From: a virus
Lineage: Duplodnaviria > Heunggongvirae > Uroviricota > Caudoviricetes
Strand: one strand, 5' to 3'
Length of the DNA: 64,000 nt
Virus record (IMG/VR): IMGVR_UViG_3300037487_000968
Location: 141,280-205,279 of that record
Part shown: positions 45,358 to 47,208 of the stretch, piece after piece
How positions within the stretch are numbered: position 1 is the first letter of the stretch
Layout of the letters: the number at the start of each line of letters is the position of its first letter
Notes under the pieces: generated by a model
Told to the model about the DNA's origin: nothing
What the model saw: the letters and a program-made list of their open reading frames with translations, nothing else
Database searches by the model: none
Program-made: the position numbers and the translations under genes

Positions 45358-47208
45358 TCATGCCAAACTCGCAAACAGGTGAATCTGCATCTGCATCTTA
45401 AATCCATGCTGCATACAATATTGCCCAACATACTTGTGGTTAGCCTCATTCTTTTCCATATCAAGTAACCCCGGTTCCCACCATGAAATAATCTCATCAA
45501 CTGTGCTACGCTCTGCCATAGTGATCTCACCCTTCTCTGCCCTGAGTAGTTTGATCTTCTGCGGGAAAGAATTATAAATGTTCATTGGGCTACAATAGAT
45601 ATCCTTGCCTGTCTTTACTTTCCAATCATGTGCCCACTGTGGCACATTGTTATAAGGACTTTCTGTATCTGCACTCATAACAAACTTCAAGCAGTCTGCA
45701 CGATCTAAAATAGTTTTAGATGGTGCGTAATACTTCACGGCCTTACCATCCTTCTCCATGCACTTGGGAGAGCAAACGAGTGTAACACCGTCTGGTACTA
45801 CTGTATCAGGAATACCGTTGCTTTCAACTTGTACTGCTTTGAAATACATCTTTTGTTGATATTGCATAAACGCAGAGATGTTTTCTTGCAGCAACGGTTC
45901 GCCGCCAGTCATTACTAATACGATATTAGGATACAGCTTGCCTATCCGAGTTTTGTTCAGTGCCCAATCTGGTGCAGCAATTCCTTTTTCGTTGTTAAAG
46001 TACCCGCAAATAGTATTGTGGATCTTAGTTTCAATCTGTATAAACGTCATCCAATCGCCATCGTCAAAGAAAGTATCACAATTATGTACTACACATCCGT
46101 TAGCAATATATGTATGTGTATCTTCTACTTCGAAATTATAAACGGTACGTTCGGCAGTTTTACTACCGAATAATCTTGCCCATCCTCTTCCGTCGGTTTC
46201 ATTTACAAACTCTACACTCTTTACTACTTTACCGTTATGAATAAATTCCGCAACCTTTTCGCGTATTTTACTATGTTCGGACATTTTAAGCTCGCTCTGA
46301 ACAAGTGGTAAGAATAAAGTATCATACCCTTCTTTAGCAAATAGCGCCTTGCGTTTTTCCATCCACTCTTTACCACGAGGAGATTTTTTAACCCATAGTG
46401 AGTCATCTGCCCAAACTTCAATTACTTTCTTTTGTCCGTTTACAACAAAGTCGGGTACTTTATGCTGGATAACTAAATCCCCGGCACCTACAAAAGTAAT
46501 AGGTAATCCTTCACATATTTTTTCTACTTTAATCTCTAATCCAGATTTAAGTTGTGTTTCTCGATTAACCCAAGATTTTAGAGCAGTAGCAGGATCTTTC
46601 ATTGGATTACCTGCGCCCGTTAAGCGTTCGATATTTTTCTCTCTAAACTCCGGGTCTTCCCATAACGCAGATAATCTTGTTGCTGCTTTATCTTTTTCAT
46701 CCTGAGACATAGGTGCACGATTTGCCAGGTCAAACGCAGGATTAAACACTTTCCTGCGGTCAGATAACGACCAGTGTACAATTTTGTCACCTGCCACTAA
46801 ATCCTCGGCATTAACCCAACTCCTATTAGAGGTTAAGAATGGATGTTCTGGCGTACACCAAACCGGCTCGCCTGAGCTGGTTACTTTAACAATTTTGTCT
46901 GCGATAGACCTGTATGTGCGTGTAACCTTCTTAGGAACCATTTTATCCTTGTCCCACGACATAACCATGTCACCTACTTTGACTTGGTCGATTCGTTTAG
47001 ATTTTCCATCTGCCATTGTAATCTTAGTAGACGGTACAAAGCAAAAGCTACAATCTAAATTGCACTTTGCTAGACGGATGAAGAGTGCGGGCGTGCCAGC
47101 GTATGGTCCTTCTCCCTGAAGAGTGAAGAACATGCTTGTTACAAACAGGCTATCCTTGGGTGCATCCTTAAAATACTTCTTACCGATAATTTCATTAGTT
47201 CCGAACAT
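45358..47208 (-). CDS. queE: 7-carboxy-7-deazaguanine synthase QueE (radical SAM) interrupted by an intein
   Basis: N-extein [24 protein letters not shown] plus C-extein [10 protein letters not shown] reconstitute the QueE CX3CX2C-DT signature. Inserted between them are 321 aa bearing intein blocks A ([13 protein letters not shown]), B (TPEHPF) and G (VVHN|C). Confidence 0.8.
   Translation of the reverse strand: [616 protein letters not shown]
46081..47043 (-). mobile_element. Intein (aa 56-376 of the QueE precursor), large enough to carry an endonuclease domain
   Basis: Starts with Cys1, has a TxxH block B, ends [10 protein letters not shown] and is followed by a +1 Cys that is also the third Fe-S ligand. 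Confidence 0.75.

Follow-up and report, generated by a model that had tools for sequence, protein, structure and literature searches.

A predicted class-1 intein with an in-frame Vsr-like nuclease domain at the iron-sulfur motif of a phage QueE-like radical-SAM gene

Described intein systems and the present locus

Inteins are usually described as carrying LAGLIDADG or HNH endonucleases. In PI-SceI and the Mtu RecA intein, an endonuclease of this kind lies between blocks B and F of the HINT fold, the intein occupies a conserved active-site motif, full and mini forms both exist, and the distribution is sporadic. The element reported here is a predicted intein in a QueE-like radical-SAM gene on a 64,000-nucleotide stretch of phage DNA (IMG/VR record IMGVR_UViG_3300037487_000968, positions 141,280 to 205,279; the whole stretch is called the window). 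It shares all of these features, whereas its predicted endonuclease is of the restriction-enzyme-like Vsr type, without LAGLIDADG or HNH. Vsr-like 'EDxHD' homing endonucleases, including I-Bth0305I, have been described by Dassa et al. 2009 (PMC2677866) and Taylor et al. 2011 (PMC3239194). In the passages of these papers that treat them, the known members are free-standing open reading frames (ORFs) between split-intein halves, ORFs in group I introns, or ORFs on their own, and the corresponding passage of Dassa et al. calls the type 'not known to be present in inteins'. Similarly, the parts of a 2025 actinophage-intein preprint that concern Vsr-like ORFs place them inside inteins only in anti-sense orientation and otherwise cite split inteins only. 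The insert in the window is predicted to have the architecture of the I-Bth0305I/EDxHD family, with repeats resembling NUMOD3 followed by a Vsr-like core. In contrast to that family, the predicted domain shares the reading frame of a contiguous intein and lacks the His and the second Asp.

The three cysteines of the CX3CX2C motif ligate a [4Fe-4S] cluster in radical-SAM enzymes, of which MoaA is one. In the intein of MoaA, an oxygen-labile enzyme, of Pyrococcus abyssi, a disulfide between the N-extein Cys(-3) and Cys1 blocks splicing until conditions become reducing, as the work of Callahan et al. 2011 is presented in sections of PMC3922620 and PMC10663303. The intein of the window has the same Cys(-3)-x-x-Cys1 arrangement (C53-S-F-C1), then Cys+1. 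In contrast, the known host is MoaA and not QueE, and its source is an archaeon and not a phage; the likeness concerns the cysteine spacing. A weak match (E 4.8e-6) was also obtained to the intein segment (profile 76-334) of NCBIfam NF038136, 'intein-containing Rv2578c family radical SAM protein'. However, this model describes another, bacterial radical-SAM family, and the score was 25.7 against a cut-off of 700.

The literature search gave no paper in which the whole words 'QueE' and 'intein' occur together. Conserved active-site motifs are already known to harbor inteins, and mini/full pairs and intein-bearing radical-SAM proteins (MoaA, NF038136 and, in the present data, P0035) are known as well. 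Relative to the literature found, the new points are the host and site, a phage QueE-like enzyme; a predicted Vsr-like endonuclease translated in frame with the intein; and the abundance and unusually strong conservation of that endonuclease type. From sequence comparison and structure modelling, we favor, with a probability of roughly 0.8, a mobile class-1 intein with an in-frame Vsr-like homing endonuclease that would occupy the best-conserved codons of the QueE-like radical-SAM gene of a phage.

A single ORF, identified by ORF listing and translation, encodes the precursor. Its parts are as follows.

45358..47208, minus strand: whole QueE-like radical-SAM precursor ORF, 616 residues plus the stop codon at 45358-45360
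47044..47208, minus strand: N-extein, 55 residues, ending ...AKC49NLDC53SF (translation; alignment to E. coli QueE, PDB 6NHL)
47062-47064 and 47050-47052, minus strand: codons of the first two cluster cysteines, C49 and C53, both in the N-extein; Cys53 is position -3 relative to the intein
46771..47043, minus strand: N-terminal lobe of the HINT fold, intein residues 1-91, with block A including Cys1 and block B T-x-x-H (VWCTPEHPF) (Pfam/NCBIfam, alignment, model)
46543..46770, minus strand: helical, DNA-binding-like region of the predicted endonuclease insert, intein residues 92-167, with two 'NP(M)xxP' NUMOD3-like repeats (FNPAFDL..., GNPMKDP...)
46231..46542, minus strand: predicted Vsr-like, EDxHD-related nuclease core, intein residues 168-271, in frame with the intein
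46534-46536 (E79), 46450-46452 (D107), 46426-46428 (K115) and 46417-46419 (E118), minus strand: candidate active-site codons, numbered within the 180-residue insert
46081..46230, minus strand: C-terminal lobe of the HINT fold, intein residues 272-321, with block F and block G (IANGCVVHN), ending in His320-Asn321 (intein_Cterm, alignment, model)
45361..46080, minus strand: C-extein, 240 residues, the first being Cys+1 (codon 46078-46080) (translation; 6NHL alignment)

The 321-residue intein comprises precursor residues 56-376 (46081-47043, minus strand) and lies between CNLDCSF and CDT. An earlier note on this DNA had given the ORF and intein coordinates and sequence exactly, without the strand, which is minus. 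The calculated masses are 70.0 kDa for the precursor, 33.6 kDa for the spliced enzyme and 36.4 kDa for the free intein, and the latter two match the enzyme of about 33 kDa and the intein of 36 kDa that the note had anticipated. The identical 616-residue protein is present on three contigs of up to 210 kb from three sources (JGI, ENA and Logan), and dozens of independent samples, as well as further same-site copies on the IMG/VR contigs L081-L085, show this architecture again. In view of this recurrence, we consider it negligibly probable that an assembly or annotation artefact joined an intein-bearing gene and QueE fragments into a chimeric contig, even though the source material consists of metagenome assemblies and two relatives, L130 and L131, have truncated or frame-shifted ends.

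The splicing domain and its in-frame insert

The spliced 295-residue sequence matches PHROG 2076, 'QueE-like radical SAM domain' (1e-46), and E. coli QueE (6NHL; E 2e-11), with no gap across the junction. The 6NHL segment is FIRLQGCPVGCAWCDT, and the alignment extends over the N-terminal QueE signature xQGEGxxxGxPxxFxRxxGCNLxCxxCDT. Removal of the intein restores CX3CX2C: the insertion lies between the second and third Cys, and Cys+1 is the third Cys. Cys+1 is therefore predicted to double as splice-junction nucleophile and third Cys of the motif. The 6NHL alignment thus bears out the earlier proposal of an intein inside the CX3CX2C motif of QueE, whose excision restores the signature and whose +1 Cys is the third Cys.

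On the whole protein, Pfam Intein_splicing scored 46.2 bits against a gathering score of 35.8 (E 5.4e-12), and several further HINT models also matched. For the excised segment, NCBIfam intein_Nterm scored 27.6 (cut-off 24.5) and intein_Cterm 30.0 (cut-off 15.6). Because all three scores exceed curated cut-offs, a chance resemblance is implausible. The class-1 splicing residues are all present, namely Cys1 (CFVPSTK), T-P-E-H, the Asp and His of block F, the penultimate His, the terminal Asn and Cys+1. The earlier note had listed blocks A, B (TxxH) and G (HN+C) and had suggested aligning the junction with QueE and intein profiles; these blocks, and block F too, are intact, and the alignments gave the gap-free QueE match and the above-cut-off intein models described here. 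In the AlphaFold model of the full intein, the pLDDT (predicted local distance difference test) score is 84 overall and >90 in both HINT lobes. Foldseek matched this model to the Mtu RecA, Ssp DnaB and gp41-1 inteins and to BIL domains with E values down to 2e-8 and template-modelling (TM) scores of 0.75-0.85, normalised to the length of the solved intein or BIL domains. Collectively, the profiles and the model indicate that the inserted segment is a canonical class-1 intein with a HINT fold, predicted to be competent for splicing.

For the full model, BIL domains rank highest among the Foldseek matches, which would suit a non-splicing, BIL-like HINT insertion or a dead intein, the gene then being a pseudogene or working as an unspliced fusion. 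We regard this explanation as very unlikely. BIL domains are not known to occupy conserved catalytic motifs with a +1 Cys/Ser/Thr, and Cys1, TxxH, block F, HN and Cys+1 are kept in the alignment of all 23 complete same-site inteins (23/23). Furthermore, purifying selection acts on the HINT lobes, and the gene has an unbroken ORF and conserved exteins. As judged from the 6NHL alignment, a 36-kDa insert between cluster ligands would also be incompatible with the solved QueE fold.

One member of the family, P0018, has an N-terminal junction that reads ...VRLTGCHYRFAGKTKI... and lacks both CX3CX2C and the intein Cys1, yet its nuclease and C-terminal junction are intact. Either this N-terminal junction has degenerated, or an error in sequencing or assembly produced it.

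The limits of the insert, which has 180 residues (intein residues 92-271; window 46231-46770), were set by comparison with same-site mini-inteins. The middle part had earlier been put at roughly 200 residues, a figure that has to be lowered, and described as free of a LAGLIDADG or HNH signature, which holds: no Pfam family was found in the insert at E up to 10, and there was no LAGLIDADG or HNH match. The nuclease identity was built stepwise, from a profile of 13 inserts to free-standing proteins and from these to solved nucleases. The profile retrieves free-standing proteins carrying Pfam Vsr, NUMOD3 (PF07460) and DUF559, and profile-profile comparison of the insert with these proteins gives 99% probability (E 2.9e-18). 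The free-standing proteins then match I-Bth0305I (3r3p, 1.9e-8) and Vsr (1.3e-5). In the N-terminal half of the insert, predicted helices contain repeated NPMxDP units resembling NUMOD3; the insert of the window itself gives no Pfam NUMOD3 match, and NUMOD3 is seen in the profile-found relatives. We infer a role in DNA binding for this helical region. Collectively, these comparisons show an insert that is predicted to combine NUMOD3-like helices with a Vsr/EDxHD-type nuclease core of the PD-(D/E)xK fold, at the usual intein place between blocks B and F. The room for a homing-endonuclease domain that the earlier note had pointed out is thus filled by a candidate of this kind.

An exhaustive profile search of 1.84 billion representatives detected the nuclease type in 4473 clusters at E <=1e-3 (clustering at 50% identity), and the best 144 new representatives of these clusters were examined. 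About 100 of the 144 have HINT lobes (70 with a QueE-like C-extein and 34 with other hosts), while 40 are free-standing. Among the other hosts, 32 were scanned against Pfam and 31 of them have a HINT domain; the hosts include DegT/DnrJ aminotransferases (4), radical-SAM proteins (4), NifU-like proteins (2), DNA polymerase B (2), QueC (2) and NrdD (1). The residue E79, equivalent to Vsr E25, is present in 143/143 representatives, and D107, equivalent to Vsr D51, in 144/144. E118, a family-specific Glu at the position of Vsr F62, is found in 138 of 144, with Asp in another 4, and K115 in 120 of 144. The search suggests that in-frame Vsr-like intein nucleases are common in phage metagenomes.

An anti-sense endonuclease ORF inside the intein was considered and rejected: the plus-strand ORFs 46349-46705 and 46784-47119 are not kept in position or frame among relatives. 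Because these ORFs are not kept and synonymous sites are free to vary, the predicted nuclease fold belongs to the in-frame translation, and the constraint acts on the in-frame product.

On the contig of a close relative, P0001, a 199-residue gene with a weak NUMOD3 match lies on the opposite strand about 600 nt downstream of the QueE-intein gene. This gene may encode a free-standing endonuclease, of a type from which the intein nuclease could have come.

Constraint, distribution and proposed homing

The codons of the window were compared with those of four relatives (L130-L133), which share 89-96% intein identity with it. In the nuclease core, third codon positions are 46-60% identical, which amounts to synonymous saturation, and the protein is 95-100% identical, with 0.004-0.045 nonsynonymous substitutions per nonsynonymous site (dN). 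The HINT lobes are 84-98% identical, and the C-extein is 58-75% identical (dN 0.20-0.36). Since the synonymous counterpart, dS, is >1.5 or undefined, dN/dS gives bounds only, and identities per codon position were used instead. By this comparison, the predicted endonuclease core is the most strongly constrained part of the gene and is not a relic.

When the intein was used as the query, about 30 QueE-like proteins from metagenomes were returned that carry an intein at exactly this position. These inteins are either full-length (310-342 residues) or mini (139-194 residues), and the mini forms differ in their deletion end points. In particular, P0010, P0023 and P0024 share the same N-extein and have inteins of 323, 169 and 154 residues, respectively. 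The best 80 IMG/VR relatives of the extein, 70-81% identical, are all intein-less, as are the four C-exteins nearest that of the window. Exteins only 24-30% identical to those of the window also carry a same-site intein, and those inteins are 43-55% identical. That the closest exteins are intein-less is the pattern expected of homing.

The same-site intein was absent from 50,697 GenBank phage records in nucleotide and protein searches. The nucleotide search gave no match; the protein search gave QueE-like genes of <=49.5% identity without an intein, and similarity to inteins of other genes was confined to the N-terminal HINT lobe. The QueE-like match in Sinorhizobium phage Phosso (H6) was rejected as a carrier, its 1116 nt against 295 residues leaving too little extra length. 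For cellular copies, 185,579 species genomes were searched with a single pattern, and among the matches listed there were only distant HINT matches, of <=43% over the N-terminal lobe.

In a comparison of the 80 intein-less alleles, the best-conserved 15-residue segment includes the junction; the top segments all span the junction, with a conservation of 0.98 versus a mean of 0.81. Moreover, codon positions one and two hardly vary over the 45 nt that flank the junction on each side. Sites conserved in this way are what homing endonucleases exploit.

A different radical-SAM protein, P0035, contains in residues 21-173 a 146-residue mini-intein before the second cluster Cys, with TTEDCNLA preceding the intein, CFVAGTK...VVHN at its two ends and CKYCYE following it. 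After removal of this intein, the protein matches Pfam Radical_SAM (E 4e-6, 27.5 bits). On account of this mini-intein in a cluster motif, CX3CX2C seems to be a recurrent intein target.

Several observations weigh against a mobile, homing intein in a QueE gene. With respect to the host, the QueE equivalog cut-offs are not reached (best NCBIfam TIGR03963, 69 bits versus 260), and no FolE, QueC, QueD or DpdA was recognised among the 46 ORFs of the window that were scanned. With respect to the nuclease, a His in the Vsr His69 column (I-Bth H213) is present in 12/128 relatives, and the column equivalent to Vsr Asp97 (I-Bth D222) is variable, with Met in the window. Because two of the four residues that name EDxHD are absent, the domain might bind DNA without cutting, or might only nick. 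With respect to mobility, intein-bearing and intein-less exteins were ranked by simple identity and not by a reconciled phylogeny, and synonymous saturation leaves recent transfer and very strong constraint indistinguishable.

Because the equivalog cut-offs are missed, 'QueE' is an assignment at family level only, and we use 'QueE-like'. Pfam Radical_SAM on the spliced sequence also stays below its cut-off (19.4 versus 29.5). On the contig of a close relative, GTP cyclohydrolase I lies 3 kb upstream, and isolated-phage homologues at 41-50% identity carry a QueE annotation. Two ORFs of the window were considered as pathway partners, one of 120 residues (49536-49898) as QueD and one of 247 residues (49895-50638) as FolE; neither is supported, as neither has a Pfam, PDB or functionally annotated PHROG match. 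In addition, the copy in the window is without the IE(L/V)(F/Y)GxYWH motif. As the His and the second Asp are absent, we do not file the nuclease as a canonical EDxHD member; it would belong to a His-less sister clade of the Vsr/EDxHD fold.

The defining His and second Asp of the EDxHD site are absent, which could also mean that the intein splices while its nuclease fold no longer cuts, the fold being kept for intein stability, DNA or RNA binding or another phage use and inherited essentially vertically. The Gly that follows the conserved Arg132 in the window, where most relatives have Asp ('RD'), and the synonymous saturation, under which no recent transfer is directly visible, fit this explanation as well. 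Even so, we judge it unlikely. The E/PD/E triad, typical of metal-dependent PD-(D/E)xK nucleases, is near-invariant in the 144 diverged representatives, including the 40 free-standing ones. In addition, repeated deletion of the domain in mini-inteins argues that it is dispensable for splicing, and without mobility it would be difficult to account for the patchy occurrence among close exteins.

For the favored mobile class-1 intein, we propose the following course, in which the splicing steps follow established intein chemistry and the homing steps follow the distribution and selection data. After translation, Cys1 would undergo an N-S acyl shift, and attack by Cys+1 would give a branched intermediate. 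Cyclisation of Asn321, aided by His320, and an S-N shift would then yield the 33.6-kDa enzyme with a seamless cluster motif and the free 36.4-kDa intein. Only in the spliced enzyme would the three cysteines stand in one short loop, as in the solved QueE structures, so splicing should precede radical-SAM activity. The substrate of the released intein or the precursor, as a site-specific DNase, would be the intein-less QueE alleles of related phages that co-infect the cell, with the cut in or close to the conserved stretch coding for ...KCNLx.... Catalysis would rely on the acid triad E79/D107/E118, with K115 as a possible partner, instead of the His/Asp pair of the EDxHD prototype. Recombinational repair would copy the intein into the cut allele, and the intein-bearing allele would be immune because its target site is split. 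Lineages without further homing would delete the nuclease, which would account for the many same-site mini-inteins.

The precursor still reads C-x3-C-x2-C (C49, C53 and Cys1; CNLDCSF-C1), with Cys1 at the position of the third ligand. The earlier note had reasoned that the unspliced precursor cannot bind its cluster, which is plausible; because Cys1 fills the third-ligand position, however, the precursor might still bind a metal or cluster. Two further proposals may be made, though the odds are against them: that the junction is a natural redox or iron-sulfur switch, and that in-frame, His-less Vsr-like nucleases form an undescribed, abundant class of intein homing endonucleases. In the former, a Cys(-3)-Cys1 disulfide, as in the P. 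abyssi MoaA intein, or metal or cluster ligation by Cys1, could hold splicing back. Cys+1 could be brought close by the HINT fold, and the oxygen-labile enzyme could be released only in a reducing, iron-sulfur-replete cell. In the latter, the nucleases would be under unusually strong selection and possibly serve also as a weapon against co-infecting intein-less phages.

Because the predicted splice nucleophile is a cluster ligand and a Cys stands at -3, the insertion point would offer a clean natural system for questions of redox or iron-sulfur-assembly gating of splicing. The in-frame Vsr-like copy would correspond to the fused end state that the endonuclease-acquisition model of Dassa et al., in the passages of PMC2677866 that set it out, predicts and does not show. 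Furthermore, genes of this type are annotated simply as 'organic radical activating enzyme' or QueE, and surveys of phage 7-deazaguanine DNA modification will mis-size or split them. Compact, strongly conserved pairs of intein and predicted nuclease may also provide raw material for protein-engineering tools.

Genome neighborhood

The setting is that of a phage genome, with a family-A-type DNA polymerase, a 5'-3' exonuclease, MazG, virion proteins, and GIY-YIG and HNH endonuclease genes. The following features were recorded in the window.

39774-40631, plus strand, opposite to nearly all neighbors: 285-residue ORF; Pfam SegE_GIY-YIG 30 bits versus a cut-off of 25; PHROG 314 'homing endonuclease'
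20524-21108, minus strand: 194-residue ORF with an HNH domain, Pfam HNH_5 and HNH above their cut-offs; mobile-nuclease candidate
6509-6593, 8428-8504 and 9395-9471, all minus strand: tRNA genes Leu-TAA, Met-CAT and Arg-TCT, respectively
21861-23069, minus strand: DUF2201 metallopeptidase / VWA-like ORF, labelled 'HNH endonuclease' by PHROGs
23353-24447, minus strand: AAA (MoxR-like) ATPase ORF, adjoining the DUF2201 ORF
47788-48123, minus strand: MazG-type nucleoside triphosphate pyrophosphohydrolase, just upstream of the QueE-like gene
48071-49045, minus strand: nucleotide-sugar epimerase, upstream of the QueE-like gene
50808-52040: glycosyltransferase-like ORF, the match being sub-threshold

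The ORF at 39774-40631 is probably a free-standing homing endonuclease gene. The MazG-type, epimerase and glycosyltransferase-like ORFs might be related to nucleotide or DNA modification.

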